Part shown: piece after piece, positions 17,245 to 56,991 of the stretch
Position numbering within the stretch: the first letter of the stretch is position 1
Layout of the letters: the number at the start of each line of letters is the position of its first letter
DNA from: Candidatus Aenigmatarchaeota archaeon
GTDB taxonomy: Archaea > Aenigmatarchaeota > Aenigmatarchaeia > QMZP01
Length of the DNA stretch: 64,000 nt
Assembly (NCBI GenBank): GCA_043824495.1
Contig: JBDRSV010000024.1
Location: 91,056-155,055 of the forward strand
Direction: 5' to 3'
Notes under the pieces: model-generated
What the model saw: the letters and a program-made list of their open reading frames with translations, nothing else
Database searches by the model: none
What the model was told of the DNA's origin: nothing
Made by a program: the position numbers and the translations under genes

Positions 17245-17249
17245 ATAGT

Positions 17250-17639
17250 ATGAAGAAAAAAGCAAAGAGGACCACAAAGAAAACAGTGAAAAAACCAGTC
17301 AAGAAAATAAAAATAGAAAAGAGAGTAACACCAAAACCAAAAAAAGAAGAGAAAATTAAATGTCCTTATTGTAAGAGTTCTAGAGTGGTTTGGAGAGGAT
17401 ATAGATACAACGAAAAGACTGACAAGCACTTAAGATTATGTAACAACTGTAAGAGAAAGTTCACAAAAAGAGACGAGTTCTTCCGTATGAGATTCGGTGA
17501 AGAAGAGATAAAAAGAGCTGTGGAATTATACAAGAAAGGTTATTCTTCTGCAGAAGTAGTTCAGAACCTGAAAAGAAATCATGGAATAAAGGTTTCAAGA
17601 TGGACTGTGATCTGTTGGCATAAGAGATACACTAAGTAA
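17250..17639 (+). CDS. Zinc-ribbon plus HTH protein, IS1 InsA-like / transposase N-terminal-domain-like, without a catalytic domain
   Basis: Lys-rich N-terminus, CPYCKS...LCNNCKRKF (CxxC...CxxC), then GYSSAEVVQNLKRNHGIKVSRWTVICWHKRY (HTH-like). AT-rich backbone composition. Confidence 0.6.
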   Translation: MKKKAKRTTKKTVKKPVKKIKIEKRVTPKPKKEEKIKCPYCKSSRVVWRGYRYNEKTDKHLRLCNNCKRKFTKRDEFFRMRFGEEEIKRAVELYKKGYSSAEVVQNLKRNHGIKVSRWTVICWHKRYTK

Positions 17640-19629: not shown

Positions 19630-20175
19630 GGATTTTTATTCCTTAGGTTGTGAGGGAAATATGACCCTCCGGGTTTGTTTTTCGATTAGTTTCTGATTGT
19701 TTGTCGTTTACCACGTTTCCAAGTTAAGGTCCGCGAATCGCTATTTTCATTGGCATCCTCTCTTTGGGTTAATGTTGTCCGCACAAATTGCGGGATTAAA
19801 AGAAGGAAAGACACAAAAGATAGAGTATGTCTTATGTAGACTGAGAGTAAAATCATTCGAAGAATAAAGCTAATACTATTAAAACAAACATGCATGTTTG
19901 ATGTGTTTCTTTTCATGTTTTTTGTGTTAGCCAATGTACCGTTTCTATGGTTAATTGGATTGATTGAGTTGCAATCAATACAAATTTAAATGATGTTCGA
20001 ATGAGTAGCATGATTTAAATTGTATACAAAAATTGACGTTGATTCATCGTCGTTTTTTTGTGTTTTGGTATTTTTTTTGATTCTAGCTTGTCGCTTTTGT
20101 CAAGTCTTTAACTCAAGTATATAGCTTACAGGTATTTAAATGTTTTCTAACACATTTTTTTTAATTTTCTTTCTT

Positions 20176-20197
20176 TTATCCCTTTAAATAGACATAT
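20176..20197 (+). repeat. Junction motif copy e (TTATCCCTTTAAATAGACATAT)
   Basis: Read directly from the sequence. A T-run lies upstream and GC-rich block I4 lies downstream. Confidence 0.85.
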
Positions 20198-20206
20198 AAA
20201 AAGGCA

Positions 20207-20259
20207 AACGGGCGAAGATTTGGAGCCAAACTCTTCTTGATGTCTCACCTCCGCCCGTT
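20207..20259 (-). terminator. Compound hairpin next to motif copy e
   Basis: AACGGGCG (20207-20214) pairs with CGCCCGTT (20252-20259), with an inner GAAGATTTGG/CCAAACTCTTC stem. On the minus strand it is followed by TGCCTTTTTATAT. Confidence 0.4.
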
Positions 20260-21168
20260 AAATGCCGTTGTCCGGCCTATCAATTTACCCGCCGGTTAGG
20301 TGAGCACATGTGCTCGTGTCCCAGAGGCGCATGTTTTCATGCCCTCCTTTGCCGGGTTCTTACGCGAACGTGCTGCTTGACCGAGATAATGTAGCTGCCA
20401 GATTCCCCACAACCTTGTTATTGGTGGAACCGCGACAGCGGTCGGTCCAGTCCGTATGCATCGTAGCCTCACTTGGTGAAGGACTGCGAATCAAGAGACG
20501 GGGATTCAGAAGAATCCCCGTCTCACGAGTTGACGGTTGGTACGAGATATATCAAAGGAAGTCTTTATGCCATTGGGTGCATTCCGAAACCTTTAGCCTC
20601 GTCCGTCTCCGAGGGATCCTATCAAAGGTTTCATAAAGGAAATTTCATGGACCTCGTTACGATAGGATCGGAGTGGCGTAAAGCCACGGCCAGAACCTCG
20701 AGGTCCCCCAGGATAAGATCACCGTTTGAATATGAGTCAGCGGTGAACGTAAGGGTGCTGGCGATTCTTCTTCGCATTCAAACCCTCCAGGGAACACTTC
20801 GTAATTTGTGTTGTCAGCGGCTGTTTACGAATCGGCGGTGATCGTTTCCACCACGGTACATGTCGGCGTGGTGACAAACGATGAAGAAGCGACTTCAAAA
20901 CGCGCGCGGCCATTGCTCGGCGGCGGCGAATGAGCCCAGGCATTGACGGCGGTCGCGGCGGTATTCATCCAGGAAGCGACCACTGGTGACCCGCGAAGGG
21001 TCGGTAATCGGTTCATAGAGCAAGCTCCATTTCTTCCGATAGGAAAATTCCAATCCACTTTACAAACTCTCGCCTAAACAGAAAGTATTGTCACATAACT
21101 TTCCGTCGCAAAAGAGAATGTGAAGAGGAAACAATTTCGTACACCTCGTCAAGAGATCGTCTCCATTT

Positions 21169-21534
21169 TCACCCTACATGGGCTAGGCGAGAGGATAGAC
21201 CAGTTGCTGATAGAGATGTAGAGGGAACCGTTTTCATCCGAAGATCTCTCCCGTCCCTCAGGGAGTAAGTTGCTCGTCCACCAGGTTCCCATACCAAGGG
21301 AGCTGGCAACTCTGCCATTCTCTCTATCCGACTCTCTGTTGTCATCGCCACTACGGCAACAACTCTTAGCCTATCCGGCGTAGGATTATGAGAGTGTAGA
21401 GCGAATTCCTCGTTCCATGTTTGTTCTGTATCGCTGCCTGTTATGATATCCAATCCTGAAAACGGGATTGGGTCAGCGGTATAAACAATACAGGAACCAT
21501 ATATGAGGTAGCAGAGTGTCATGATTCCCAGCAT
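21169..21534 (-). CDS. Possible small secreted protein
   Basis: AAGGAG lies 5 nt upstream of the ATG, with a hydrophobic N-terminus MLGIMTLCYLIYGSCIVYTA. It is the only ORF in block I4 with a good RBS. Confidence 0.4.
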   Translation of the reverse strand: MLGIMTLCYLIYGSCIVYTADPIPFSGLDIITGSDTEQTWNEEFALHSHNPTPDRLRVVAVVAMTTESRIERMAELPAPLVWEPGGRATYSLRDGRDLRMKTVPSTSLSATGLSSRLAHVG

Positions 21535-23161
21535 GACAACTCCTTACAAGGGCACATGGTTATATGGTAAATGCTCTCTCCGTCAACAAATCGTGCCCTC
21601 TAAGACATGTTTAGGAGAGAAAGGCGACAACTCATGAAGTGTTCTTCAGGTGGACCCGTCATCACTGTTATTGCGTTGACGGCCTTCTCCTTGACCCGGA
21701 CTTAGACGTGTGGCTTTCGGTGTTTTCGCGGCGCGTTTCTGCTGTTTTGGACTACGCTTCTTGTTGCTCGGAAGCCCGTCTCGGGCACCACCGTGACACG
21801 TCATGAAAGACCTCGTTTGTGAGGAGTTCAGTTCAAGCTTGTGCTGGAACTGTTTGGAACGAGGAATTGTTACTCTTTACGGCGAGCGATTGTGTGTCAT
21901 CGTAACTCCTTGACAATGGTTTCCACAAGCTCCAAAATAAAAAAGAGCTGTTGTTTTCAAATTCAGTTGGGAATCTCCTAGCCCGCCCCCAGAACTGACT
22001 AGAGGAGATCCCCAACTTTTGTACAGCGCACCCCGTGCATTGTTTTCAGGGTGGAGGGGCCCGGCGGTCAACTGAGCCCCTCACTGGACGAATCGGTCAC
22101 AGATAACATGTTACGCATTACCGACTCGAAATCTATGCCACGGCAGTAGATGGAAGTGGTCGCATCTACCGCCGGGCTTCACGACGTTGTGCATTTTGTC
22201 GCCTTCAGCCTTACACAACGCCGTTATTTCCCCACCCACAGGGAATTTAATATCGCGGGGCCTCACTCAGGAGACCCCGCTTCCGTTGGGTTTACTACCG
22301 AATTGTTCGGTAGCGTTCTTCCACGACAGACATACGCACATGCGCACGTCTTCATTTCTTTGAGGACCTACTCATCTCCGATTTGAGTAGGTCCTCGGCT
22401 CCCCACAACCCCCCGATCAGCACCGGGAATTTTTTTGAGGGGAAATCTGAGCAGATATCTCAGACTCCCCTCCCGTCAGGTCTACCGACCAGCACTTCCG
22501 GTTGGACGCCGGAAATTCTTTATTAGAAGGGGTTTCCCCTCTCCAAGAAACCCCTTCCTCTTCGGCGTAGCGCGTCTCACGCGCTTTAGTGCATCGATCC
22601 CCACCGATCAGGTAAAACCCTTGGATGGTTCTCTCCCCGAACCCCCACTGAAATATTTTGGAACCCCTCATAGATCCCCGTAATCTCCGAGAGGTTCCGA
22701 CAGCAGCACCATACAAATGGGACTACCGTGACAATCAAAAATACCGGAATCCACCGCGTCAGAAGAGGATTCCGGTATTCTACATCGCTGGTTGTGTTGA
22801 GAGCTTACCCCTTACTGGTCTTAACGAGTATGTTACGTCGGACTTCCTTTCACCAAATATACGGGTCACTACAGAATACCCGATCGATCCGCTTTGTTGT
22901 CTTAATCTCACCAGCGGATAGTGACGCGGTTACAGCCAGCGATTTCGCCTTTATACAACAGGCGTCTCCAAACCAAAATGGAAATTGGAGTTGTTGCTTC
23001 CACACTTCCGGATTTCCCCCTCCGGTAAACTCTAAGGTACTGATAGGTGACCGCTCGTGTTTCTTGTGTTCGCAATTGCCGATTGCATCAAGCTCTTCGT
23101 AGATCTAGATCTGGAAGTAATTAGCAAACGATCACAATAAACAGACAACTGGGAGAAGTCC

Positions 23162-23788
23162 ATTTCTACCAGTACCTGGATTTTCTAACCCTCGGGAGGT
23201 GTGTACAAGCCTAAGCAGAGTTTGTCCTGTTGAATTGGCCCCGAGGGTAAGTGGCCTTCCGGAAGAGAATTGGTGAGGTCCTGTAACAGAACTCTATCTC
23301 ATTCCGGGGTAAAGCTCAAGGCACAGCCAGAAGGAGACGTATTACCTTGAGAAGTTGGTCTCCCGAGTGAAGAAATTCGAGATGTCCCATCGATGAAGGA
23401 CATCTCTTCTCCACTCGGGCTCATTCGTCAGCCTGGAAGGAGAAGTGCAAGAGTTTTCGCGCAATTACTCTCTCTCCTCCCGGGAAATTTATGACCTCCT
23501 GGTCCGAAACTTGTGCCGCGGTAAACCAGAAGGCGTAACTGCTAGGCTATGTGACGGCCACAGCAGTAGGGATCGAATCCAATACACGAAAGACAGCTAA
23601 GACTAACTCTGTCTCGTGTGGTTTACGAGTAAAATTCAGAAATCGATAGTCTTCGGCCTCTTCGAGGGAAACTGCTTAAGCGCTTAATTGCAGCGCGTTA
23701 TGTTTCCTGGTAAGTGACCTGTTCTCTAGGATGTACCGAAGGCTAACTTAGTTAGTCTCGGGAAATTCGCGTGTGATTGGTAGAAATG
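23162..23788. ncRNA. Candidate ~630-nt structured RNA (family unknown, strand undetermined)
   Basis: CATTTCTACCA (23162-23172) is complementary to TGGTAGAAATG (23778-23788). Internal helices include CCCTCGGG/CCCGAGGG and GAGATGTCC/GGACATCTC (23379-23406). No ORF. Confidence 0.35.
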
Positions 23789-23949
23789 AAACATGAAATG
23801 TCCTTATATATAAATGTAATTTAATTACTTAAATAGGTTGATGGATAGCTTTAAAAAGGTACTATTAAAATTATTTTTTTGTGAAGGGATCGATATACCA
23901 AGTGCTTCCAAAAATAAAGAGTAGAAAAAAATAAGAGTGAAAAAAGCAA

Positions 23950-25992: not shown

Positions 25993-26515
25993 TAAAGATC
26001 TTTAAGATCTTATTTTCTGTTTGTAGTTGTTCCAGGAGCTCTCTTAGCTCTGTTTTTAATTCTAATCCATCTCTCCAAAAAAGAATATTTTCTTGTCTTT
26101 TTTCTTTTCTGAGAATAGAAACATCAAGTTTGAAATTTCTCTTTTCATCGATGTCTGTGATATGATTCATCATATCGTCTTTTTCTTCGATGTCTTCTTC
26201 AATTTCTTTTAAGAATGTTTTGTGGAGAACTTCTCTTTCTTTCATAGTGTTTTCAATTTCACTAACTCTTATTTGCAAGAATTCTACTTTATCGAATAAG
26301 CTTCCAATAACTAGAGGATCATCTCTTTTTAGAGCAGTGAGTTTACTTTCTTCAAATCTTGGCATTGATCTTTTCTTAATAATTTGAACTTCTCTAACTT
26401 CGGGTTCATCTAGATCAATCTCATCATGTCTAATTAAAGACTCACGTCTTCTCTTTTTTGTAATGTCTTCATACTCGTCAAGAGTTTTATAATAGGGTTC
26501 CATTAATCTGTCCAT
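25967..26515 (-). CDS. Coiled-coil protein, overlaps the start of the ATPase gene
   Basis: 182 aa, highly charged with a heptad-like E/K/L-rich sequence. Confidence 0.5.
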   Translation of the reverse strand: MDRLMEPYYKTLDEYEDITKKRRRESLIRHDEIDLDEPEVREVQIIKKRSMPRFEESKLTALKRDDPLVIGSLFDKVEFLQIRVSEIENTMKEREVLHKTFLKEIEEDIEEKDDMMNHITDIDEKRNFKLDVSILRKEKRQENILFWRDGLELKTELRELLEQLQTENKILKIFNDLGGTND

Positions 26516-27342
26516 AATAATTACCTCGAGTGACCATTTGTCACTATCTGATAGTTAAAATATGTATAAAGGGTTTATAAAGCTTTCGGTTAGCTTGCAG
26601 TGTGCTGTTTTTGAGCGTAAAAATCGTGTACGAAAGACAATTTTCTTGGGTTTCCATGACTTTTGTGCCAACGAAAGACATATTCTGTCTTTAGTAAGAG
26701 AGTTAATAAAGATTTCTGTCTCGCGCCTTATAAAGGATCCGAATTGGATATTTTATATAGTAATTAATTACTATTGTAGAGATCTTTATTTACTTAAGTC
26801 TTTACATAAATAATTCTCAAATACTTTTTGTCTTTGCTAAAGTTTAATGCAGATTTTCCTCGAAACTTTTGTGGAAATTCTTGAAATCAAATGTCTTCTA
26901 GTTTTGCTAGAGCTTTTGAAGACATGGAAACTCTCATAAAACCCCAACCGAAAAGTATTTAAACCCTTTGACTATAATTTCACTATAGATTAGTGACAAC
27001 AAATTAAGAAATGTCTGAGTTATGTGTGGTGTCAAATCCTACATAACTATCTTTACAATCTACGCAACTTTGAATAAAAAGAATTTCGGGTTAAACTCGC
27101 AATTCTAAACTCAGAGAAATTGAGTGCACAGGAATTTAGGCGCGGCCTAAAATCCCCATAAGAAATCCAAAAAAATGACACGCTTTGTGTCAAAAAATGT
27201 GATTTGAGGGGGTTTGATTTCCTTAGCTCTGAGTATCTACTTTTCGAAAACCACGAAGACTCGCGTAACAATTCTAAGCAATAAATATAGTGAAATTCCA
27301 GACTTCTGTAGACTTTCGCTGTCTGACATAGAAATTAACAAG

Positions 27343-27353
27343 TTGACAATAAA
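27343..27353 (+). promoter_or_regulatory. TTGACAATAAAC box (sigma70 -35-like), first of three copies
   Basis: The same box recurs at 29367 (CTGACAATAAAC) and 30278 (TTGACAATTAAC), each 35-55 nt upstream of a start codon. Confidence 0.4.
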
Positions 27354-27377
27354 CGGAAACTTCTGGGAGGGATTGTC

Positions 27378-27740
27378 ATGAGAAATATCATGAGCTGTGT
27401 TTTCCTGCTGCTCACATTATTCCTGGTGAGTTGTGCGAAAAGTGGTCCGGAGCTGGGGAGTGATATCCGGATCAGTGGAACAATCGTCGACATGAGCGAA
27501 GGAGGTAGTAGGGATTTCCTGATCCAGTCCGGAGGAAAACTCTACCATTTCGGTACTCGACTGCAATTTAAATGGAGTAAACTTCGTGCGGGACATTACG
27601 TCACCGTGGATGGGAAGTTTGGGGGACCGTGCGAGGAAGCCTCAATGTTCAGACGCTACATGTACGACGACGAAGGGAACTTCATCAAGTCCCTCGAGGT
27701 CTATGACATCATCCATGTTTCGAACGTGGAGAGGCAGTGA
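27378..27740 (+). CDS. Putative lipoprotein
   Basis: MRNIMSCVFLLLTLFLVSCAKSG (lipobox LVSC), with GGGAGGG upstream. Confidence 0.6.
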   Translation: MRNIMSCVFLLLTLFLVSCAKSGPELGSDIRISGTIVDMSEGGSRDFLIQSGGKLYHFGTRLQFKWSKLRAGHYVTVDGKFGGPCEEASMFRRYMYDDEGNFIKSLEVYDIIHVSNVERQ

Positions 27741-28098
27741 TCCCACTGAGTTCATCCAATTCATCGGGTGGACCCAGATGAGATTATTGTCTAAAGGCTA
27801 AATCAGCAGGCCTTGAATTGTTGGTAGGGATCATTGGAAGATTCCCAAAAACATGGCAAGGAGGGCAACATGTCGCAGGGAACCAAAAACACCAAAGACA
27901 CAGGAACAAGAGCGTTTCTGGTTATCGACGGAACTACAGGAGACCTCATTCCTGTGAAAGCATCGTCTGGACGAAAAGCTGAGCAAATCGCCGGCAGCGT
28001 AACCAGACAATCCCGCAAATAAAATTACCCACTGTGAATTCCCCAGGAGTATCATCCGCCCGGAAGATACTCTGTTCTCCCCCATACTACCATAGGCC

Positions 28099-28138
28099 AC
28101 ACGGAGCTCATCAGGTTTTCACTTGGTGGGCTCCAGTG
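28099..28138 (+). promoter_or_regulatory. Conserved intergenic hairpin element, copy 1
   Basis: CACGGAGCTCAT...GGTGGGCTCCAGTG. Shares the GAGCTCAT / GGTGGGC core with copies 2 and 3 but has a different, still complementary, outer stem. Confidence 0.45.
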
Positions 28139-28240
28139 AGATCTTTGGTGGTTAACGTTCCATAACCGTTTCATTCACAACCTTTTGCCGACCTTGTCTG
28201 CATTGCAGCTCAAGGAAGTGTGTAAAGGAAGGAGAGTGTC

Positions 28241-28942
28241 ATGTTATTGCATGTAACAGTAATAAGCCGCGGAGACAGAACAACGATCGATGTTCCCAGA
28301 ACAGAATTCAACTGGGATACCAATCAATGTCGCGTAGTTGAAGGTGCAGAGGAAGCTGAAAGAAATCTCGGGGTGGCGGAGAATCTCGAAATCCGTAAAC
28401 CCGCGGCTTACCAGGGACCCTATTTATACTGTATTGTAGAGGTGGGGTTCGAGGAAATTTGTTTTCCCCCGACTTTCCTCAAGTGGATCGAGAATGTTCC
28501 CGAGGATGAGAAAAGAGCCATCCTTATCGTTCCCACCAAAACCATCCGAAAGGCCGATGATAGTCACTATATGGGATCTATAGATCGTTATAGGTATTAT
28601 CCTCATGGTGAAGTCTTCCTGATTGGTCGCAGAATCATCGTGAGGAACATCTACCTATCACCTGATAACATCAAGATGGTGGTGGATAAAATCCTTGCCC
28701 GACTGAGTGACGGCCTGTTCCTCCGGTTGGCCTTTGAGTTTCTCCAGGCTACGCCGATCAGTGACAATCCTACGGTGACTGGAGAACATATCACCATGTT
28801 GGATAATCTCTTCACGGGGACGCGTTCCCTTCGGAGAGGAGATTCAACTCGTCGCGAACGGTTCAATCATGTTCGGGCCGTGATTGGACATATGGCCAAA
28901 CACGGGATAGTTCTGTCTGGCAAGATCGAACCCGTGAAGTAA
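28241..28942 (+). CDS. Hypothetical protein
   Basis: 233 aa with AAGGAAGGAGAG upstream. No family recognised. Confidence 0.6.
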   Translation: MLLHVTVISRGDRTTIDVPRTEFNWDTNQCRVVEGAEEAERNLGVAENLEIRKPAAYQGPYLYCIVEVGFEEICFPPTFLKWIENVPEDEKRAILIVPTKTIRKADDSHYMGSIDRYRYYPHGEVFLIGRRIIVRNIYLSPDNIKMVVDKILARLSDGLFLRLAFEFLQATPISDNPTVTGEHITMLDNLFTGTRSLRRGDSTRRERFNHVRAVIGHMAKHGIVLSGKIEPVK

Positions 28943-28995
28943 TCAACGGCTTGGAAACCAAGTCAAATCAACGACAATGAAAGTTGAGGTGTAAT

Positions 28996-29316
28996 ATGAA
29001 TAGGCGAATACAGAGTATGATTGTGATGACTGCGACTTTGATAGCTGTTGCAGTCTTTCTCCAAGTCTCACAGCTTCACGCGGCACATTTGATGGCAACC
29101 GCAATTGCAATTGCGGTTGTGGTGATGATCGTTGTTAACATGGGAAGAGTTCCCAACACTCGGCAGAAGTTTCGGAACTTCTCTGTCGGAGCCGTTTTCG
29201 GGAGCATCTTCCTGTGGGAGTTGTTCAAGGTTACGTTCTTGAATCACCCTGCGGCTCTTTGGAGTGTGGTTGTACTCGGAGCTGCGGCAGTCTCATTTCT
29301 GACGTTCCGCCGGTAG
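28996..29316 (+). CDS. Hypothetical membrane protein
   Basis: Three hydrophobic helices. GAGGTG lies 4-5 nt upstream of ATG 28996. Confidence 0.55.
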   Translation: MNRRIQSMIVMTATLIAVAVFLQVSQLHAAHLMATAIAIAVVVMIVVNMGRVPNTRQKFRNFSVGAVFGSIFLWELFKVTFLNHPAALWSVVVLGAAAVSFLTFRR

Positions 29317-29330
29317 TACTGAAGTTCACC

Positions 29331-29361
29331 GGGGATCCCGATCAATCTGGTTGGGATCCCC
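29331..29361 (+). terminator. Hairpin terminator (GGGGATCCC...GGGATCCCC)
   Basis: 9 bp perfect stem. A homologous copy lies at 30241-30273. Confidence 0.6.
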
Positions 29362-29414
29362 TCAACCTGACAATAAACTGTTGTTAAATGTTCCATTACA
29401 CCAAGGAGGGCGCA

Positions 29415-30233
29415 ATGCGTCACCAACGTTTCATCACCACAGTACTGGCACTCATGTTCTTGACTGTGCCGGCAATGTTCAGCAGTGCGGTTCTGGCCGA
29501 TCCGATTTCATCCGGAGACGGTCAAATGTATGTGGTCCAACAGGGAGATTGGTTGACGCGGCCGATCATCCCGACACTCTACTCGGATGTGTTGAAGCCA
29601 GGCGACTTGAAGAGTGCTCTCTGGATCGCTGACATCTTCGATACACTCAACATTAACATCACCCACCGCGACAAAATTCGGGCGTATGATACCATCATGG
29701 CGCCGTCATTCGCGGCGTTGAAGAAGTACAAACATCTCGCACCCGCCGACGTGGTCATCAACCTGTTCGCCACGTATGATATCGCGTCCATGGAACTTGT
29801 GGACGCCGAGTTTGTAAGAAAGCGCATCGAGGACTTTGAGGGTACTTACTGGTACAAAAATCGAGCCGCGTGGGCCCGAATTTTCGGAGTCGGTAATGGC
29901 ACGTATGTCTGCGGTGACACCGTGATGCCGTTCTCATGGTTCATGAGCTGCAATACGGACGGTAATACGGGAATGACTATCTCCATCTCCATGGACGAAG
30001 GAGATCTCACCGCAGTTCGCAAGGTTCCAGGTACACGTAACGGATTCTGGGGAGCCAGTCGTGACAATAAGTTCACATACGTGGGCTTCGGCAACGACTG
30101 GATCGATCGTTGCGACTGGAATGACGAGACCGAGAGCTGGGACATTCCACCAGTTCTGAATGAGATCGTCGGAACTCTCAACAACTTTCCATTCGTCCAG
30201 TATATGACCGTCGTCGCGTACGAACTGGAATAG
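29415..30233 (+). CDS. Hypothetical secreted protein (paralog of 30334..31659)
   Basis: Signal peptide MRHQRFITTVLALMFLTVPAMFSSAVLA, with AAGGAGGG upstream. The C-terminal half aligns with the next gene. Confidence 0.65.
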   Translation: MRHQRFITTVLALMFLTVPAMFSSAVLADPISSGDGQMYVVQQGDWLTRPIIPTLYSDVLKPGDLKSALWIADIFDTLNINITHRDKIRAYDTIMAPSFAALKKYKHLAPADVVINLFATYDIASMELVDAEFVRKRIEDFEGTYWYKNRAAWARIFGVGNGTYVCGDTVMPFSWFMSCNTDGNTGMTISISMDEGDLTAVRKVPGTRNGFWGASRDNKFTYVGFGNDWIDRCDWNDETESWDIPPVLNEIVGTLNNFPFVQYMTVVAYELE

Positions 30234-30240
30234 TTGTTAC

Positions 30241-30273
30241 AGGGGATCCTGACCAATTCGGTTGGGATCCCTT
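30241..30273 (+). terminator. Hairpin terminator, duplicate of 29331-29361
   Basis: AGGGGATCC...GGATCCCTT, followed by the same CAACTTGACAAT box. Confidence 0.55.
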
Positions 30274-30333
30274 CAACTTGACAATTAACGTAACATGTTA
30301 ACAATGAATACCAACAGAGAAGGAGAAAGTCAA

Positions 30334-31659
30334 ATGTGTAACATCATCATCCGTACCATCGTGGCACTGGCACTCATGGTTCTGATCGTGCCGGCCATCA
30401 CCAACATCGCAATTGCGGACGGAACGCCGTGTGGTCTCACCGTAGGTAATGGCAACGACATCGATCGCGACTTCGTTGCATTCCTCAACAAAGAAGGAAT
30501 CAGATGGTTAACAATCGAGGAATTCGTTGAGTGCTACTCCCAACTGATCGGTCCAGGTAGTACCATGTTGAGCACCACTCGGGGATATGGCTGGGGATAT
30601 ATTGACGTTCCTTTCAAGTTTGGCGATTCGGTCGCGTCTATAGTGAACATGGAGATCATGCCAGGCGTCCGGATCAATATGGCTTGGGATCAAGCGGTCA
30701 TCTTCTACAAATATGCGAATAATCATGGAATGCATATTCTGAAGAAGACGGAGAATGACCGTGAGGTTCCGGCCTGGAGCGGCTTGATTGATGAAGCTAC
30801 GGTGCGTCAACATGTCAACGGCTTCGAAGTGTCCGCGCAGATTCCGAGTGATGTTCTGGAATCGGATGTTGCGATTATCCGGATGCGAGATTTAAAGGAC
30901 GCCTACTTGGCCGAGAACACCGACGTTATCGAGTCTTACCTCATCGAGAAGTTTGACCTCGACGACGATTCCGAGCCGTATTCTGACAATCGGCCAAATA
31001 TATTTCATCGCAGTGGCGAAGTCTTACTGGACTCGGAGATGTTCTTCGTGTATGAAGGTCTGGAAATTCTCAATCTCATCATCAATGATCGGTGGATTGG
31101 TGTACGATTCCCCGGATCGACCTATATCCACTTCATCAACATCGGACCGAGAAAAGTCCACGACTTGAATGCCAACTTCGTCGAGACGAAAACTCCGAAC
31201 AACACCGGCGGTCAGATCAGTATCCCGCAGGATGTGATCGAAAAGATGACGTGGATCGATTCCGTCTATTCGGATAGGATGTCCCCGAATCCGATGTTAG
31301 GTTTCGGAAACGGTGAGTACCTGGCGAGCTCTGGGATCGTTTCGTTCGCGTGGGTTGCCTGGACCAACACCGATGGCAACCTCCAGTTCTATCTCAATGT
31401 TCTCCTTAACATTGATCATCAGGTGACGATCGAGACTGTGTCTCACTACGGTGGGCCTGATGTTTGGAGGGCGTGGAGTCCGAATCAGACCTGCACAGAG
31501 GTGGAGACTGGAAACGGCTGGTGTTATATTCACTGTTCCCAGTCGGAAAGTGGACCTCGAATCTGCGACTATAGACAAGCCTTGGACGATGCAGTCGCGG
31601 CGTTCAATGGCATCGATTTCTTCACGAACATGAAGGTGATCATGTACACGGTGAAGTAA
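30334..31659 (+). CDS. Hypothetical secreted protein (paralog of 29415..30233)
   Basis: Signal peptide MCNIIIRTIVALALMVLIVPAITNIAIA. GFGNGEYLASSGIVSFAWVAWTNTDGN aligns with GVGNGTYVCGDTVMPFSWFMSCNTDGN in the previous gene. Confidence 0.65.
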   Translation: MCNIIIRTIVALALMVLIVPAITNIAIADGTPCGLTVGNGNDIDRDFVAFLNKEGIRWLTIEEFVECYSQLIGPGSTMLSTTRGYGWGYIDVPFKFGDSVASIVNMEIMPGVRINMAWDQAVIFYKYANNHGMHILKKTENDREVPAWSGLIDEATVRQHVNGFEVSAQIPSDVLESDVAIIRMRDLKDAYLAENTDVIESYLIEKFDLDDDSEPYSDNRPNIFHRSGEVLLDSEMFFVYEGLEILNLIINDRWIGVRFPGSTYIHFINIGPRKVHDLNANFVETKTPNNTGGQISIPQDVIEKMTWIDSVYSDRMSPNPMLGFGNGEYLASSGIVSFAWVAWTNTDGNLQFYLNVLLNIDHQVTIETVSHYGGPDVWRAWSPNQTCTEVETGNGWCYIHCSQSESGPRICDYRQALDDAVAAFNGIDFFTNMKVIMYTVK

Positions 31660-31947
31660 AGCCGAACGCCACGAATTACTAATCCGCTCTTCTTCCCAAA
31701 GAAGTGTGGCTAGTGTGAAAGGAGTATGGGAAGGTTCCACAGTAGTAGCATCAACGGCAAAAAGTAAAAGACAAAAAAATGAAGGCCAAACCCGAGGAGG
31801 AACTCGAAGTGAAGACGAAACGAAGGTCATGCCAATATCCCATTTCGCCCATGATGGCGACTCATATTCTCATAGTCTGACCGGCCGCCGGCGACGCCAC
31901 GGGCCTCTTATATAGTTAGCGGGGCCCATCGCCAATGCAGTCAAAAT

Positions 31948-31975
31948 CCCGGGTAGGCTTCAACCCCTACCCGGG
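31948..31975 (+). terminator. Hairpin terminator CCCGGGTAGG...CCTACCCGGG
   Basis: 10 bp perfect stem. Confidence 0.6.
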
Positions 31976-31976
31976 G

Positions 31977-32028
31977 TTCCAAATGAGCTCATCTAGTTCA
32001 GATATTTTCTAGGTGGGCCCATTTGGAA
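31977..32028 (+). promoter_or_regulatory. Conserved intergenic hairpin element, copy 2
   Basis: TTCCAAATGAGCTCAT...AGGTGGGCCCATTTGGAA. Confidence 0.45.
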
Positions 32029-32092
32029 TTGTAAATGATTGTTGACTGTTCAATGAGCGTTCCGAAAGGAACATTGCAAGGAGATTTTTATC

Positions 32093-32557
32093 ATGACACA
32101 GCAGATGACATCAGTACCAGATGGTTGGGGCGGAGCAGGTGGCGACAGTCTCGGCACAGATGCACTCGAGCTTCTGAAGAAAATGGGATTCGACAATGCA
32201 ATGGGACAAGCGTTGCTCGGCAGCTTTAATCCACAGGGTTTCGTGGATGCGCTTCTCACGTTCCGACCGTTCCCGGTTGGCGGAGTCTCTCCCGAAGCTC
32301 GGAACGAGAGCAGAGAAGCTCAGTGGATTTATCTCACATGGATCTTCACCAGTCGGCAGAGAGCCTCCTTTCCCGTCGAAGGGGTGAGTGGCCTTGCTGA
32401 CTTCGTGGATATTGTCCGGAAAGCACAGAGCGATGCGGACGCGAACGAACATGCAGTTCGAATCTTGTCCAGGTTTGGGTGTGTCGATCTCCTCGTTGGT
32501 GAAGGTCGGACCTTCTTGCACACGAAAGCCATCGATTTCGCTAATTCCCAAACGTAA
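32093..32557 (+). CDS. Hypothetical protein
   Basis: 154 aa with AAGGAGA upstream. Confidence 0.55.
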   Translation: MTQQMTSVPDGWGGAGGDSLGTDALELLKKMGFDNAMGQALLGSFNPQGFVDALLTFRPFPVGGVSPEARNESREAQWIYLTWIFTSRQRASFPVEGVSGLADFVDIVRKAQSDADANEHAVRILSRFGCVDLLVGEGRTFLHTKAIDFANSQT

Positions 32558-32579
32558 GTCCGCGACATCACCAACCAAT

Positions 32580-32612
32580 CCCGGGAACAAGACAGTTCAA
32601 TCTGTTCCCGGG
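32580..32612 (+). terminator. Hairpin terminator CCCGGGAACA...TGTTCCCGGG
   Basis: 10 bp perfect stem. Confidence 0.6.
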
Positions 32613-32665
32613 TTCCAAATGAGTTCATGTGGTTTGATTTCTTGACTAGGTGGGCTCATTTGGAA
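32613..32665 (+). promoter_or_regulatory. Conserved intergenic hairpin element, copy 3
   Basis: TTCCAAATGAGTTCAT...(TTGACT)AGGTGGGCTCATTTGGAA, with an 11 bp outer stem. Confidence 0.45.
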
Positions 32666-32757
32666 TTGAGTTGTAGTAGAACCATAACCCATTCACGACC
32701 TTTTGTCGACCCTGTCTGATATCAGTTCAGGGAAGAATCTAAAGGAAGGAGAATTCA

Positions 32758-34749
32758 ATGCATTCACTCCAAGAAGTAAAAGAACACATCAAGACAACGA
32801 TGTGCAAAGCGGTTCAAGTGAATCGCTGGATGATGTGGATCGCGCTCGTCGTCATATGTATTGTGGCGATTGAGTTGTTCGTTTGGTTGCCTTCACTGCC
32901 AGAAGAGGCGCAAGACGTCCTTTCCCCATTCATAGAAGGTGGAAACAGGAATGCAGGCACGTTATTACTCCACTTCTTCTGTTTCATGGGTGCATTGGTG
33001 TCTATCTTCTTCAAAATCTTCGGTCCGATCACAAGATCTTATGATAATACACTTTTCTGGGAACTCCATCTGGGTGGAACAAAAAGGATCGGATTCCGCC
33101 TGGGTGACTGGCCTACTGGTGTGTTCATTGAAGCGGCAGACGTTCTCAGTGATTTACCAGCGAATGTCAGGAAAAGAATTCCGTGCACCCAGTATGCTGT
33201 TTCTCGAATTAAAAGCGTAACGGAATTCGACGACAGCGGTAGAGCCATCGTCCCACGGGATGAGAGTGTGTCTTCTGTGAGATTCGCCACAGTGGATGAT
33301 GGTCGACCGGGAACGCTCGACTTGGATAGGGTGTTCTCCTGGGCGCATAAGTACATCCGAGGCTATTATATCTGCCTGGCCTTTACATGTCTGTTCCTGG
33401 CTTGGCCGGTGATAACCGGCTACTCGATCGCGAGCTTCATGCACGACCTCCCGGTCCAGATCCACGACATCGCTGTTGACCCATCTCAGAATTCGACGAA
33501 AGTAATCGTCAGTTCTGATCGCAATGTCCGGTATGACTCAAGAATCGAGGTTGCAGATGACTGTGTCTGCTCCCGATTCATTCTGAACATATACCCGGCA
33601 AAGTGTGATTTCCTGGAGGAGATCTTTGCCAGTGACTATGTAATGAGAGGGTATTATGGGGCTCGAACCAACACCGGGCAGCTCTCCGAAGCAACTGGAT
33701 GGAATGGTGTCAGGCAAATCAACATCAGACAAGTTGGTGACACCATCAAGATTGTACTCGGCCTGAAAGATATGGTTGAGTACGCAATGAGTCGCTCGTC
33801 AGAGCACGGCACAAAGGATCTGGTCGTTGGTCTGGACACGCCAGTCGAGTCCAAACAGACATCGGGCGAATATTGGACCGCGAACAAGTTCGCAGATCAG
33901 TACGAAGTTCCTGACAACAATGCCCGTCGCGAGTCATCGTGTGGTGAATGGAAGTCGTTCGTCAGATTTGTATCTGCGGATAGTAACAACGTATACTTCT
34001 CTGCCAGATACGGTGGAGTGTACAGAGTGGATATGAATGGATGGATTGACACGATCGTCCCAAACAACGAGGTTGATTACTACCACACGCCAGTGAGTAG
34101 CGGTAATAAACTCGCTGGCATCCATGATGGGAATGATCTCTGTATTGTGGATATGGATACCAGAAAGGTCAAGAACGTCACCCATGGACAAATATGGGAC
34201 GTCGATTGGGTCTCGGACACCGGACTCGTGTTCTGGAGAGATCTTGATGGTGTCTGTTACTACTCCCTCTCTGCGGACTCGTCTTGGTCTTTGAACAAAA
34301 AGGCCAAATTCCCATCTGTGTGTGGGGATAAGATATTCTACCTCACACACTTACGCACCCATCGGGATGAGTGGGATTCCACACTAATCTGGGAGATGAG
34401 CCTTGACGGGTCTTCCAGAACCGTAGCTAGGTTGAAGGGAGGCTACTCACACCTGAGTATGTCTTCGGACTGCTCAATTGCAGTTCTGAAAGAGCCGTAT
34501 AGTTCTGACCGCACGTGGGTCAATAGAATCAAAACATTCTCCTTCAACGACTGCATTATGACAACACTGACGGAGTGTGGTGAGTCTCCAAGGATCACTA
34601 CAGACAATCGAATTGTTTATGTCAAGTTGTATCCTGTGGAGGGGCGTGGGGATTTCAACTCGAACTCAGAAGTCCGGATCATGGATCTGGACGGCAGAAA
34701 CGACACCTTGATTGTCAACAGAGAGGAACTCCGGAAGTTTCCGATGTAA
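32758..34749 (+). CDS. Membrane-anchored protein with C-terminal TolB-like beta-propeller region
   Basis: N-terminal TM helices. The C-terminal half has repeated short beta-strand/Asp-Gly motifs resembling PD40/WD40-like repeats (weak). Confidence 0.6.
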   Translation: MHSLQEVKEHIKTTMCKAVQVNRWMMWIALVVICIVAIELFVWLPSLPEEAQDVLSPFIEGGNRNAGTLLLHFFCFMGALVSIFFKIFGPITRSYDNTLFWELHLGGTKRIGFRLGDWPTGVFIEAADVLSDLPANVRKRIPCTQYAVSRIKSVTEFDDSGRAIVPRDESVSSVRFATVDDGRPGTLDLDRVFSWAHKYIRGYYICLAFTCLFLAWPVITGYSIASFMHDLPVQIHDIAVDPSQNSTKVIVSSDRNVRYDSRIEVADDCVCSRFILNIYPAKCDFLEEIFASDYVMRGYYGARTNTGQLSEATGWNGVRQINIRQVGDTIKIVLGLKDMVEYAMSRSSEHGTKDLVVGLDTPVESKQTSGEYWTANKFADQYEVPDNNARRESSCGEWKSFVRFVSADSNNVYFSARYGGVYRVDMNGWIDTIVPNNEVDYYHTPVSSGNKLAGIHDGNDLCIVDMDTRKVKNVTHGQIWDVDWVSDTGLVFWRDLDGVCYYSLSADSSWSLNKKAKFPSVCGDKIFYLTHLRTHRDEWDSTLIWEMSLDGSSRTVARLKGGYSHLSMSSDCSIAVLKEPYSSDRTWVNRIKTFSFNDCIMTTLTECGESPRITTDNRIVYVKLYPVEGRGDFNSNSEVRIMDLDGRNDTLIVNREELRKFPM

Positions 34750-34830
34750 GCGTGTAGTTATCATTCACACCCCGCCTGGATTCAATTCCAGGCGGGGTTG
34801 ATCATGAAATAAAGAGAAGGGGAGTGTACC

Positions 34831-35835
34831 ATGATAAAAATGTTTGGTAAACTGCTCTGCGGAGTTGCCATGGTTGTAGGCGGGTTGATCGCAGTGCTAG
34901 CGACGATCACTTTCTTCGCAGTCATTGGGAACATGGTAATCGATACTTACAAAATTGGCATGCATTTCTCTCCGTTGTTACCGACAGCCTTCATCAGCCT
35001 TTGGGTCGCCGCCGTCATGCTTTGGATTACCACCCTCGGCGCGAAAGGCCTCGGATGGTCGGTATCATGCCATTTGAAATTCAACATCGGTTACGGTTCC
35101 ATGCTGCTGGGAATCGTCGGCGTAATTGTGATCCTGGGATACTACACATATCTCTTCACCTTTGCTGACATCCCAGGACAACTGGTTGTCCTCAGTATTG
35201 ACGGTATGGAGACGTTCAGTCGGGTGGAAGTTCGTCTCATGAAAATCATGGATTTGGTGCCTCTACTATTCGCATCCATTTGCACCGGATTCACCGGACT
35301 GGCTCTCTGGTGGGGACGAATACAATCAATCCGGTTTCCGTTCTCCCGTTGGTTCGGAATCGCTGTCGCGATGATTCTTGTTATTGTCATGGCAGTGCCT
35401 GTTCTTGGTCAGGCCGATTCCACAGGCTTCACTGAGGCCAAGACCCATCTTTGTGGGATGCAGATGAATTATGCTGAATATTTCGGTGAGTTGTTCGCGG
35501 CGCGTTTCGCATCCCGGGAACTTGATATCAATATCTTCGATGCCGATGAAGAGTGGATGTGGAGAATGGTTGATTCAACATTCTACCGAAGGGATACACT
35601 CTTTGCTGTCAGAGACGGGTTCTCGTCGGTATTTAATATGGCCGAAGAGAAGGCCGAGCTTGTGGCCGCGACTGATCTGGCGAGAATTGTCGGGAAAATC
35701 AGGGGAATCCCGGAAGGTGAACGCGTTCCTTTAAGGTATTGTTTCCGTGGGGGACAGTTCATCAAGAAAGATACAAACAGAGGTTACCATGCGGTTGTAG
35801 TGCAGATTCTTCCGCTGTCTGAGAATCTGGAGTGA
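34831..35835 (+). CDS. Hypothetical polytopic membrane protein with cytoplasmic C-terminal domain
   Basis: 334 aa with about 6 TM helices, and GGGGAG upstream. Confidence 0.6.
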   Translation: MIKMFGKLLCGVAMVVGGLIAVLATITFFAVIGNMVIDTYKIGMHFSPLLPTAFISLWVAAVMLWITTLGAKGLGWSVSCHLKFNIGYGSMLLGIVGVIVILGYYTYLFTFADIPGQLVVLSIDGMETFSRVEVRLMKIMDLVPLLFASICTGFTGLALWWGRIQSIRFPFSRWFGIAVAMILVIVMAVPVLGQADSTGFTEAKTHLCGMQMNYAEYFGELFAARFASRELDINIFDADEEWMWRMVDSTFYRRDTLFAVRDGFSSVFNMAEEKAELVAATDLARIVGKIRGIPEGERVPLRYCFRGGQFIKKDTNRGYHAVVVQILPLSENLE

Positions 35836-35973
35836 AACCAACATTATCCTTTCAACATTTGATGGAGGACGGGTCATGAAACTAGTCTTAAATCGTAGGC
35901 ATCTTATAGATCCCGCCAGTGTCATTGGGCCACGCGTGAACTGGTTGTTCTCCTGAATGGCCAAGAGGTTCAG

Positions 35974-36222
35974 GTGCGTCCTATCGACCAGACGATAATT
36001 CTGATCGGACGCGATCCGGAATGTGACGTAATACTCGATAATCGCGCCGTCGACTTCTTCCATGCTCACATTGATTTCGGCGAGAATTTTGTAGTAATTG
36101 ACAACGTGTCACTCAACGGCACGTTTGTCAACGGAGAAAAGGTCGAGAAAGCGGTTCTCCGTCCTGGTGATGTGATCACAATAGCCAGGTATGAGATTCA
36201 CATCCGGTCCCTCCGGAAGTAG
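35974..36222 (+). CDS. FHA-domain protein (start uncertain; domain extends upstream of the annotated GTG)
   Basis: IILIGRDPECDVILDNRAVDFFHAHI...NVSLNGTFVNGEKV...PGDVITIARYEIHI is FHA-like. The frame is open back to 35899. Confidence 0.65.
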   Translation: MRPIDQTIILIGRDPECDVILDNRAVDFFHAHIDFGENFVVIDNVSLNGTFVNGEKVEKAVLRPGDVITIARYEIHIRSLRK

Positions 36223-36250
36223 ACGACGCGATGGTAGTCTTGTTCCAATT

Positions 36251-36279
36251 CCGTACAGGTGTTTACAAAATCTGTGCGG
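36251..36279 (+). terminator. Imperfect hairpin after the last gene of block I5
   Basis: CCGTACAG (36251-36258) pairs with CTGTGCGG (36272-36279) with one mismatch, followed by GATTTGTATT. Confidence 0.45.
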
Positions 36280-36286
36280 GATTTGT

Positions 36287-36308
36287 ATTGTCTAATTAAA
36301 GGGATATA
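36287..36308 (-). repeat. Junction motif copy f (reverse complement TATATCCCTTTAATTAGACAAT)
   Basis: Read directly from the sequence. GC-rich block on the left, AT-rich DNA on the right. Confidence 0.9.
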
Positions 36309-36316
36309 AGAGTTAA
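36308..36316. repeat. 9 bp target-site duplication AAGAGTTAA (left)
   Basis: Identical 9-mer at 45467-45475, each directly abutting a terminal inverted repeat. Confidence 0.85.
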
Positions 36317-36332
36317 GGCTTTGCACAAAAAC
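36317..36332 (+). repeat. Left terminal inverted repeat
   Basis: GGCTTTGCACAAAAAC is the exact reverse complement of 45451-45466. Confidence 0.9.
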
Positions 36333-36390
36333 TCTGTTTTACACAAAAACTGTGCTTAGCCTAAAAAATTCAAGAAAAAGGAGGTGAAGC

Positions 36391-36609
36391 GTGAAAAAGG
36401 TTAAAAGTTGGAAATCTAAAGATAATAATATGATGATTACTCCAAGATTAGTGTTAATGTTCATTTTTGGACTTATTGCTATTTATGGTCTTTTTGCTGC
36501 TCTTAGTCCAGAAAGGTATATAATTCCTCTAGTTTCAGGTGAATTTGCACAAATTATTGGGTTTATTATATTTATCATAGCAGGTTATTTTTTTGTTAGG
36601 TTTAGATAA
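36391..36609 (+). CDS. Small membrane protein
   Basis: Two TM helices, a GTG start and GGAGGTG upstream. Confidence 0.45.
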   Translation: MKKVKSWKSKDNNMMITPRLVLMFIFGLIAIYGLFAALSPERYIIPLVSGEFAQIIGFIIFIIAGYFFVRFR

Positions 36610-44027: not shown

Positions 44028-45038
44028 ATGCTTATGAAAACGAAACAACTTACTTTAGATCGAGACTGGAGCCAATATAACTTGGCCCAAACACAGGAGA
44101 AACTTCTATTCATGAGAATACTGAGTGATGCCGTTAATTCCATGAATATAGAATATACATACAAAGGCAACGGAAGACCAAGCATAGGCATAGAGGACAT
44201 GATAAAAGTCCTCGTGATAAAGGTTTTCAACGGCTTCTCGCAGAGGAGGACAATACCAGATTTGTATATGGCTAAAGGTTTAGGCTACATACCTGAAGTC
44301 CCACACTTCAATTCCATAAGCAACTACTTCAACAGCACTGAATTGACTTATTATCTTGAGCAGCTCTACAGGATATTGGCTATGCCATTCATTCCTATAG
44401 AACAGTACTTTGCTATCGATTCTACTGGTTTTGGTAAATACAATACCAATTGGACTGCCAGCAAATATAAAAACGCAAGCATGAGAAGCTTCAACAAGCT
44501 GCATATAATATGCGGAGTGCGGACAAACATAATTGTGATAGCTAAAGTGACAGATGCACACCAACACGATTCTCTTCAGTTTCCTAAGATGCTTAAGGAG
44601 ACATGCAAAATATTCACAGTAAAAGAGATCTCTGCAGACAAAGGATATCTAGCACTCTATAATGTGAATGCAGCTAAAGAATTAGGCGTAGTACCCTACA
44701 TAATGCCCAAGAAGAACACAAAGTTATATTCCAAAAAGAGATGGGTGGATGGAGAGGCATGGGATAGAATGGTACTCATGTGGAGACATAAAGAGGAAGA
44801 ATTCAGAAAACACTACCATCTGAGATCGAATGTTGAGAGCAGCTTCTCAATGATGAAGAGGAAGTTTCTTCCTTTCATAAGGAGTAAGAACCCTATTGCA
44901 CAGAAGAATGAAATTCTGGCTAAGGTTGCTTGTCACAATATATCCGTTCTTGTCCACTCAATCTTTGAATTGGGTTTAAACATAGATTTTAAAAATATAG
45001 ATTCAACAGATGAAAGGAGGGAATATTATGACGCCTGA
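44028..45038 (+). CDS. DDE transposase, IS4/IS5 superfamily (DDE_Tnp_1-like)
   Basis: FAIDSTGF, ISADKGY and the Y-x2-R-x3-E-x6-K signature (YHLRSNVESSFSMMK). Confidence 0.85.
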   Translation: MLMKTKQLTLDRDWSQYNLAQTQEKLLFMRILSDAVNSMNIEYTYKGNGRPSIGIEDMIKVLVIKVFNGFSQRRTIPDLYMAKGLGYIPEVPHFNSISNYFNSTELTYYLEQLYRILAMPFIPIEQYFAIDSTGFGKYNTNWTASKYKNASMRSFNKLHIICGVRTNIIVIAKVTDAHQHDSLQFPKMLKETCKIFTVKEISADKGYLALYNVNAAKELGVVPYIMPKKNTKLYSKKRWVDGEAWDRMVLMWRHKEEEFRKHYHLRSNVESSFSMMKRKFLPFIRSKNPIAQKNEILAKVACHNISVLVHSIFELGLNIDFKNIDSTDERREYYDA

Positions 45039-56547: not shown

Positions 56548-56582
56548 ATGATATATTTATTTAGTAAATTTAAAAACGATTC

Positions 56583-56990: not shown

Positions 56991-56991
56991 A

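Follow-up and report, generated by a model that had tools for sequence, protein, structure and literature searches.

A 9-kb block of envelope-directed genes, probably of recent bacterial origin, in the chromosome of an Aenigmatarchaeota archaeon

In a 64,000-nucleotide stretch of contig JBDRSV010000024.1 from a Candidatus Aenigmatarchaeota archaeon (the whole stretch is called the window below), we analysed a 9-kb block of co-directional genes whose products are predicted, from sequence comparison, to be mostly envelope-directed and unrecognisable beyond a single FHA (forkhead-associated) domain. We favour, with moderate confidence, the explanation that this block is a recent, horizontally acquired and compositionally unameliorated bacterial island in the chromosome of a DPANN (named after Diapherotrites, Parvarchaeota, Aenigmarchaeota, Nanoarchaeota, as well as Nanohaloarchaeota) archaeon. 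That the donor was a bacterium we regard as likely; its placement specifically in the candidate phyla radiation (CPR) is a tentative assignment. Ultrasmall, host-dependent microbes form two great radiations, the CPR bacteria and the DPANN archaea, and their surface proteins, almost all of them uncharacterised, are thought to govern attachment to partners.

Composition and borders of the block

An exact look-up matched the block proteins to a Candidatus Aenigmatarchaeota metagenome-assembled genome (MAG), where they are annotated as ABIJ92_04360 to 04405 on a 171,815-bp contig. The first-pass annotation of this DNA had described the block as bacterial-type sequence in an archaeal host, and its composition, tetranucleotide signature and sharp borders agree with that description. 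The GC content of the island (27.3-36.3 kb) is 0.49, against 0.31-0.35 in the flanks, 0.31-0.36 in the low-GC rest of the window and 33% for the contig, and the GC content at third codon positions (GC3) is 0.51-0.66 in block genes versus 0.20-0.26 in host genes. Both borders are abrupt, GC rising within ~100 nt at ~27,370 and falling within ~100 nt at ~36,300. The tetranucleotide correlation (r) reaches 0.80 between the two halves of the block and only 0.09-0.36 between block and host; likewise, Karlin delta* is 37 inside the block and 151-214 between block and host. The low-GC parts of the window hold archaeal housekeeping genes (ArgRS, a YGR210-type GTPase, an intein-containing inositol-phosphate synthase) together with defence genes (a HerA-like ATPase, a Cas4-like nuclease and an Eco57I/MmeI-type restriction-modification enzyme). 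The block is one of four islands of GC 0.45-0.55 in the window, the others lying at 1-3, 14-24 and 56.5-59 kb.

To the left of the island lies an AT-rich, non-coding spacer of 860 nt (26,516-27,377). Within it, positions 26538-26591 and 26946-26999 form a 54-nt inverted repeat with 74% complementarity, and TGACACGCTTTGTGTCA at 27176-27192 is palindromic.

Genes of the block and their relatives

Between 27378 and 36222 we found ten open reading frames (ORFs) led by Shine-Dalgarno (SD) sites and one FHA ORF, all on the plus strand, in agreement with an earlier count of about ten co-directional genes; an SD precedes 10 of the 11 starts. Relative to the longest ORFs, starts were corrected to 27870 (g50), 28996 (g106), 29415 (g272) and 30334 (g441), and the corrected lengths of g272 and g441 (272 aa and 441 aa) are those of the annotated proteins. 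Localisation was assigned by hydropathy and N-terminal inspection, with a lipobox defined, following PMC12462473, as [LVI][ASTVI][GAS]C closing the h-region of a signal peptide.

The first gene, g120 (27378..27740; SD GGGAGGG; ABIJ92_04360), encodes a 120-aa predicted lipoprotein without family match in Pfam, NCBIfam or PHROGs. Its signal peptide (MRNIMSCVFLLLTLFLVSC) ends in the lipobox L-V-S-C at residues 16-19 (LFLVSC); of the two lipobox proteins first proposed, it is the only one that has such a motif. Two secreted paralogues follow further downstream, as had been predicted: g272 (29415..30233), with a signal peptide ending ...AVLA/DP and a C-terminal region of ~140 aa in a family that we call A3, made up of small, uncharacterised secreted proteins, and the two-domain protein g441 (30334..31659), with a middle domain at residues ~61-271 and a C-terminal A3 domain at ~298-441. 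Their relationship is supported by BLASTP of the C-terminal 130 aa (E = 1e-7) and by one family hidden Markov model (HMM) that matches both at about 1e-50. The three membrane proteins of the first-pass annotation are also present, namely g106 (28996..29316; SD GAGGTG), a small protein with four transmembrane (TM) segments, g663 (32758..34749), with three TM segments and a C-terminal ectodomain of ~440 aa holding 16 Cys, and g334 (34831..35835), with five or six TM segments. The C-terminal ~110 aa of g334 resemble a signal-peptide protein, P0015, and would therefore lie outside the cell. Besides the lipoprotein and the secreted pair, the predicted envelope products thus include three membrane proteins, of which two have large external domains.

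Hydropathy likewise bears out three soluble proteins: g50 (27870..28022), a small basic ORF of 50 aa (SD AAGGAGGG; longest ORF from TTG 27834) whose coding status is uncertain (GC3 0.48); g233 (28241..28942), of 233 aa and probably cytoplasmic, with one distant relative, P0020; and g154 (32093..32557), of 154 aa, which has a double stem-loop on either side and matches only itself. Between g441 and g154, an ORF-poor gap (31660..31947) contains a 69-aa ORF (31706-31915) that is without the codon-position GC pattern of real genes and appears non-coding (GC3 0.37), and the gap may be a gene remnant. No paralogues of block genes occur elsewhere in the window, and Pfam and NCBIfam scans found no kinase, phosphatase, ATPase or other engine in the block.

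The TolB-like propeller that had been attributed to one of the membrane proteins did not hold up. Matches of g663 to TIGR02800 (TolB; E = 0.048, 12.6 bits against a cut-off of 343) and to the NUP159/214 propeller (19.5 bits, cut-off 29.6) are sub-threshold, a PDB sequence search gave no match, and the self-alignment score for blade repeats was reached by 12 of 60 shuffles. Five hxhxDxDG-like motifs are suggestive at most. A beta-propeller in g663 is therefore possible but unproven as far as its sequence goes, and the TolB-like label is a guess.

The last gene of the block (35899..36222) does encode a small FHA protein (PF00498, 65.2 bits against a gathering score of 20.7), whose closest PDB matches are the actinobacterial proteins GarA and OdhI (2kfu, 2kb3; E ~ 4e-11). 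The annotated ORF of 82 aa begins at GTG 35974, which has no SD, and leaves out strands beta1-2; the frame is open from 35899. Upstream of that GTG it encodes ELVVLLNGQEVQV, which aligns to GarA/OdhI, and this open 5' extension contains no ATG, GTG or TTG codon. A 26-codon ORF (35876..35956) with ATG 35876 and a good SD, GGAGGA, overlaps the extension in another frame and probably supplied the FHA start originally, before a frameshift split it off. Among the phospho-threonine-binding residues, G-R, H and N-G are kept and the Ser of S-x-x-H is replaced by Asp. Like GarA/OdhI of Actinobacteria, which are its best sequence match, the protein is a small, stand-alone domain; unlike them, it has neither an N-terminal phospho-acceptor ETTS tail nor a start codon ahead of beta1-2, carries the Asp substitution, and has no kinase nearby.

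Across Pfam, NCBIfam, PHROGs and PADLOC, the FHA domain alone exceeded curated cut-offs, consistent with the earlier statement that the proteins are not recognised beyond the domain level; the sole other match below E = 0.01 was a weak one of g663 to PADLOC KwaA (E = 0.002). A word-indexed search of 5.8 billion clusters returned self-matches only for g663 and g441, and only self or known members when run with the A3 profile. We then compared g233, g154, g334 and g441, concatenated, with 1.84 billion representatives in an exhaustive phmmer search, which yielded 13 distant proteins. Three secreted proteins of 280-300 aa (P0008, P0009 and P0017) match the middle domain of g441, and eight signal-peptide proteins of 156-181 aa match its C-terminal domain. 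P0020 alone matches g233 (33% identity over residues 72-198), P0015 alone matches the C-terminus of g334, and g154 has no relative among these representatives. P0020 lies on a 1.3 kb metagenomic contig on which the next gene opens with a TM segment, as does the gene after g233, and P0009 (TSC82133.1, Parcubacteria group bacterium) is a lone gene amid NAD-synthesis and tRNA-synthetase genes.

Members of the A3 family share the motifs GxGxGxY, FxW[FV]A[WY]xNxDGxLQF, TWIGTxNxW, two Cys and F..M.V..Y. A scan of 185,579 species, at one genome per species, with a degenerate back-translated motif gave matches in two genomes, a Patescibacteria group bacterium and a Candidatus Wolfebacteria bacterium, both confirmed by the family HMM, and JGI metagenomes added four more members. 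All taxonomically named relatives are thus Patescibacteria (CPR), and no other archaeal protein appeared in the cluster, phmmer or profile searches of the block proteins. The genes around the relatives are bacterial and vary from locus to locus (mnmA-adk-map; MacB/FtsX; glycosyltransferases plus DUF4012; N_methyl pilins), and tblastn and HMM searches of all recovered loci found no second block gene beside any relative. In bacteria the A3 family is free-standing and single-copy; only in this island is it fused to N-terminal extensions and duplicated. An AlphaFold2 model of the shared domain, based on an 11-sequence alignment, is an alpha/beta sandwich of high confidence (predicted local distance difference test, pLDDT, 89; predicted template modelling score, pTM, 0.86); the model of the g441 middle domain is unusable (pLDDT 50).

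In two of the recovered loci, L005 (2,826-3,197) and L009 (10,749-11,862), type IV pilin-like genes (GFTLIE, N_methyl) stand directly after the relative of a g441 domain; this adjacency, absent from the other recovered loci and from the window, may reflect a functional neighbourhood in CPR bacteria, and two loci are too few for it to be used here.

Repeated non-coding modules and their reading in the archaeal host

The intergenic regions of the block contain several repeated modules, all on the plus strand. The TTGACAATWAAC box occurs at 27343, 29367 and 30278, as originally listed. When one mismatch is tolerated, 4 matches are obtained across the whole window, a count reached in 5 of 100 shuffles, and the box, hairpin and leader motifs are confined to the block within the window save for one single-mismatch box match at 59232. 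Two tandem TGACA...AAC boxes, CTGACATAGAAATTAAC and then TTGACAATAAAC (27323..27354), stand at the island's left edge, 23 nt before the start codon of g120. Elsewhere the box forms part of a 51-nt module, of which the first copy (29328..29378) joins a GGGGATCC hairpin (29331-29361, -25.6 kcal/mol) to a CTGACAATAAAC box and the second (30239..30289), 84% identical to it, a GGGGATCC hairpin (30241-30273) to a TTGACAATTAAC box.

A stem-loop follows almost every block gene on its 3' side, though only the strongest have the z-scores given next and the rest are weaker; after g334 a significant fold was not found. The GGATCC and CCCGGG hairpins have folding energies of -23 to -28 kcal/mol, and fold z-scores of -4.4 to -7.3 were obtained for these, for the hairpin between g663 and g334 and for copies 2-4 of a covarying hairpin element. 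Covariation in this element is upheld and its copy number rises from the three first counted to four (27744, 28097, 31976 and 32613). Copy 1 (27744..27780; core GAGYUCAUC...GGUGGRCYC) has a weaker fold (z = -1.8), and copy 2 (28097..28139) folds at -27 kcal/mol (z = -5.1). Copies 3 and 4 belong to the two double stem-loops around g154: in the first (31948..32029; -48.6 kcal/mol, z = -6.9) a CCCGGG hairpin (31948-31975) precedes copy 3 (31976-32029), and in the second (32580..32665; -47.3 kcal/mol, z = -6.8) a CCCGGG hairpin (32580-32612) precedes copy 4 (32613-32665). Over the four copies, 85% of cells are paired and five of the 20 pairs have changed on both sides. Two U.G pairs are invariant, and would be A.C mismatches on the opposite strand; since they are acceptable on the plus strand only, the element probably acts as plus-strand RNA. 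The hairpin between g663 and g334 (CCCCGCCUGGAU..., 34769..34798; z = -7.3) is GC-rich with 12 bp, and a terminal hairpin (36247..36283) marks the right edge of the island, GC reaching the host level ~20 nt further.

The ~75-nt leader shared between g233 (28160..28240) and g663 (32682..32757) is also present as described. The consensus fold has CCUUU paired to AAAGG in the SD region, and two pairs are compensatory; this weakly suggests translational control, on a model drawn from two sequences only. Rfam 15 gave no match to the hairpins or leader at gathering score, nor, over positions 26400-36500, at E <= 1.

Two functions first assigned to these modules were not sustained. The CCCGGG and GGATCC hairpins are indeed strong; as terminators they fail, the intergenic hairpins of the plus strand being without a U-tract and intrinsic terminators not being enriched (8 sites against 8.1 +/- 2.6 expected). 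Nor do the -35-like TTGACA boxes behave as promoters: only the box at 30278 has a -10 partner, a weak one (AACAAT), for the box at 27343 the SD itself occupies the -10 position, and sigma-70 sites (-35 hexamer, 16-18-nt spacer, -10 hexamer) are not enriched, with 17 found against 12.2 +/- 3.7 expected.

The claim that the signals of the block could not be read by archaeal machinery is not supported. A 5-mer of AGGAGGTGA lies at -20..-3 in 10 of 37 host genes, over a background of 3%, compared with 10 of 11 block starts, and the host gene at 36391 carries AAGGAGGTGA. To our knowledge, Sec signal peptides are universal. Oligo-T is the archaeal termination signal, and runs of T>=5 on the plus strand number one in the 8.8-kb block versus 3.7 per kb in host DNA. 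The AT-rich left spacer abuts the island and has TATA-like motifs, including a AATAAATA motif at 27280; because of this spacer and of the near absence of oligo-T from the block, read-through from host DNA into the block is plausible as a means of expression, a point of inference from sequence and not evidence. Finally, lipobox proteins are reported to be prevalent in DPANN, and the lipidation enzyme AliA to be present there 'with some gaps' (PMC12462473).

Origin of the block

The favoured explanation, a recent bacterial acquisition, would take the following form. The donor would be an unsampled Patescibacteria (CPR)-like organism, in which the genes would have formed an operon-like array with a separate SD site for each, and stem-loops on the plus-strand transcript would have protected 3' ends or marked sites of processing, rather than acting as classical terminators. 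The duplicated leader, its SD occluded by the fold, would have placed g233 and g663 under the same translational control. The repeated modules would have been born by duplication within the island, the 51-nt hairpin-and-box module moving with the paralogue duplication. In the archaeon, transcription would proceed by read-through from the host AT-rich intergenic region at the left junction, and translation by host ribosomes that use SD sites. The function of the block would most plausibly lie in cell-surface or partner-contact biology.

Several observations weigh against this explanation. Identity to the relatives is 25-38%, none exceeding 40% for any block gene, and judging from their sequences the detected relatives are not the donor; g663, g441 and g154 have no relatives or domain-level ones only. 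The link to CPR consists of one protein family and one mid-domain homologue at that same 25-38% identity, the relatives of g233 and g334 being without a taxon, and tetranucleotide comparison with CPR loci was not discriminating (best r = 0.47). The usual marks of integration were not seen either: ARAGORN found no tRNA gene in the window, the only tRNA-like sequence (11072-11232) being 16 kb off, no integrase or tyrosine recombinase of Phage_integrase type was matched among the window ORFs scanned, and the island borders have no convincing flanking direct repeats or att sites. Moreover, the 5' lesion of the FHA gene and the 290-nt ORF-free gap after g441 hint at decay of parts of the island. 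The two assemblies compared below probably share reads, so a read-level chimera is unlikely but conceivable.

That the block is instead a functional, conserved envelope system, for instance a surface complex under FHA or phospho-threonine signalling, seems doubtful to us. Such a system would account for genes that are co-directional, tightly spaced and each provided with an SD, for leader and hairpin modules common to non-paralogous genes, and for coherent predicted localisations (lipoprotein, secreted, membrane and cytoplasmic adaptor); in locus L006, moreover, the relative of g233 is also followed by a gene opening with a TM segment. However, relatives of g441, g272, g334 and g233 never co-occur in the loci recovered. 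Because they are solitary genes in unrelated bacterial neighbourhoods, a conserved system is unsupported, and neither the co-regulated system of the first-pass annotation nor the linkage it expected in bacterial genomes was borne out: the relatives, at 25-38% identity and not representing the donor, are single, scattered and unlinked. The block also has no kinase, phosphatase, ATPase or other engine, its FHA gene has no usable start for strands beta1-2 and an Asp in place of the Ser of S-x-x-H, and no block protein has a PADLOC or PHROG match that passes E = 0.001. We think it improbable that the block is a working cross-domain 'episymbiont surface kit', a set of secreted and membrane-anchored surface proteins, including a fold without clear PDB counterpart, captured from a co-resident CPR bacterium, expressed by read-through from a host promoter and altering attachment.

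Three other origins would each explain part of the picture. Descent from an integrated mobile element, such as an archaeal virus or a plasmid, of which the block would be a remnant, would fit the variable, defence-rich surroundings (HerA-like ATPase, Cas4-like nuclease, type IIG restriction-modification enzyme, DDE transposase) and a content made up, as in archaeal viruses, mostly of ORFans; we nevertheless hold it to be quite improbable, since the block has no PHROG family match, no tblastn match in 50,697 phage records, no blastn plasmid match, no BFVD fold match and no capsid, replication, integrase or packaging gene, and in composition it resembles neither the host nor the low-GC defence genes beside it. 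A chimera of assembly or binning, with bacterial reads in an archaeal contig, is suggested by the MAG source, the abrupt switch in composition and the presence of four GC-rich islands in 64 kb, many for a small genome. Yet the island is internal to a 171-kb contig with host-type sequence on both sides, and in the Logan assembly of run SRR26275509 a 48-kb contig shows the same gene order (HerA - island - PD-(D/E)XK - restriction-modification) and matches the window exactly for 21,992 nt, a span that takes in both junctions. With this second, independent assembler giving zero differences over 22 kb, an assembler-specific chimera is very unlikely; the junctions have no repeats able to mislead an assembler, four separate two-sided insertions are unlike chimeric joins, and we give a chimera of either kind very little credence. 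Least of all do we expect an integron-type cassette array, a cluster of attC sites lacking an integrase (CALIN), although the block resembles one in its co-directional, mostly orphan ORFs, in the imperfect palindrome after each and in the ~90-nt double hairpin on both sides of g154, and attC clusters with hairpin-forming repeats are reported from archaeal MAGs including Aenigmatarchaeota (Ghaly et al. 2022, PMC9668308). Unlike these, the block has no RYYYAAC ... GTTRRRY pairs at attC spacing on either strand, and its stems are flanked by 5'-GTT...AAC-3', the reverse of attC. Sites of the attC type range from 57 to 141 nt in length, and the single hairpins of the block, at 28-53 nt, fall below that range. 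Invariant U.G pairs indicate RNA folding of the plus strand, and the window ORFs that were scanned yielded no tyrosine recombinase. The attC interpretation was rejected, as box pairs, flank orientation, length and integrase all fail.

Returning to transfer from bacteria, there are precedents for the individual features. CPR-DPANN transfer of divergent membrane-related proteins is attributed to Jaffe et al. (2016, Environ Microbiol 18:5072) in the account given by PMC12455944, and inter-domain transfer between the two groups is also described in PMC8204110. As in those cases, an ultrasmall DPANN archaeon is the recipient here, named relatives are confined to CPR, and the products are unannotated membrane or secreted proteins; here, in contrast, ~ten genes form one contiguous, unameliorated 9-kb block with its own non-coding punctuation, and the direction is drawn from composition and phyletic pattern, with no tree and the donor not sampled. 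Groundwater Patescibacteria carry genomic islands, one of them of 11 genes, none functionally characterisable (PMC12455944). These too are multi-gene ORFan islands of atypical composition in ultrasmall organisms, but the recipient in our case is archaeal and no donor copy of 85-100% identity is known. The stem-loops of the block invite comparison with repetitive extragenic palindromic (REP)-like elements. In bacterial operons, REP-like stem-loops are extragenic palindromes that shield upstream mRNA from 3' exonucleases. Like these, the imperfect palindromes of the block follow stop codons in a co-directional array and conserve their structure through compensatory changes; unlike them, only four copies are known, all inside the island, and there is no RAYT transposase.

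Elsewhere in the window, a 624-aa secreted protein with FlgD_ig and Por_Secre_tail domains (the latter for type IX secretion C-terminal sorting) is encoded at 17,755-19,629 on the minus strand, with a GC of 0.54. This gene belongs to a second, separate bacterial-type island, and its type IX secretion domains point to a donor like those of the Fibrobacteres-Chlorobi-Bacteroidetes group, not CPR. The ~4.2 kb at 19,700-23,900 (GC 0.47-0.50) have no ORF >125 aa on either strand, no Rfam match at E <= 1, no tandem repeats and a tetranucleotide signature unlike host and block, and may represent foreign DNA turned into pseudogenes or else an unknown non-coding RNA of large size. The island at 56,500-59,050 (minus strand; GC3 0.50-0.63), the fourth GC-rich one, encodes three ORFs (300, 181 and 154 aa), none matching Pfam, and has a signature close to that of the 14-19.7 kb island (delta* = 37). 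The leftmost part of the window (868-2,388) encodes a compositionally foreign M32 (Taq-type) carboxypeptidase (GC 0.57, GC3 0.70). The only mobility-related genes seen in the window are a DDE_Tnp_1 transposase in host-composition DNA (44,028-45,038) and a 134-aa zinc-ribbon and helix-turn-helix protein inside the 14-24 kb island (17,235-17,639), neither of which adjoins the block. The tRNA-like gene at 11,072-11,232, missed by ARAGORN and Rfam, consists of a 5' part AGCCCCGTAGTGTAGTGGTCAA and a 3' part GGTTCGAATCCGCACGGGGCTA with an insert of ~85-90 nt between them, and probably represents an archaeal tRNA whose intron is large or non-canonical. Lastly, a myo-inositol-1-phosphate synthase gene (47,035-49,560, minus strand) is split by an intein with a LAGLIDADG endonuclease domain.

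If the favoured explanation is correct, the locus would be a particularly large, fresh case of a known kind of CPR-DPANN transfer, in which the non-coding punctuation has stayed intact, and would involve no new mechanism or category. There is a small possibility that the hairpin and leader modules constitute a new, portable expression or recombination cassette for shuffling such genes. As an unusually clean snapshot of a very recent transfer from bacteria to archaea, in which a multi-gene surface block is still in donor composition, the locus could be used as a test case for the expression of transferred genes. It also delineates a small family of secreted proteins (~140 aa) that can be folded with confidence and whose named members come from Patescibacteria and this archaeon.

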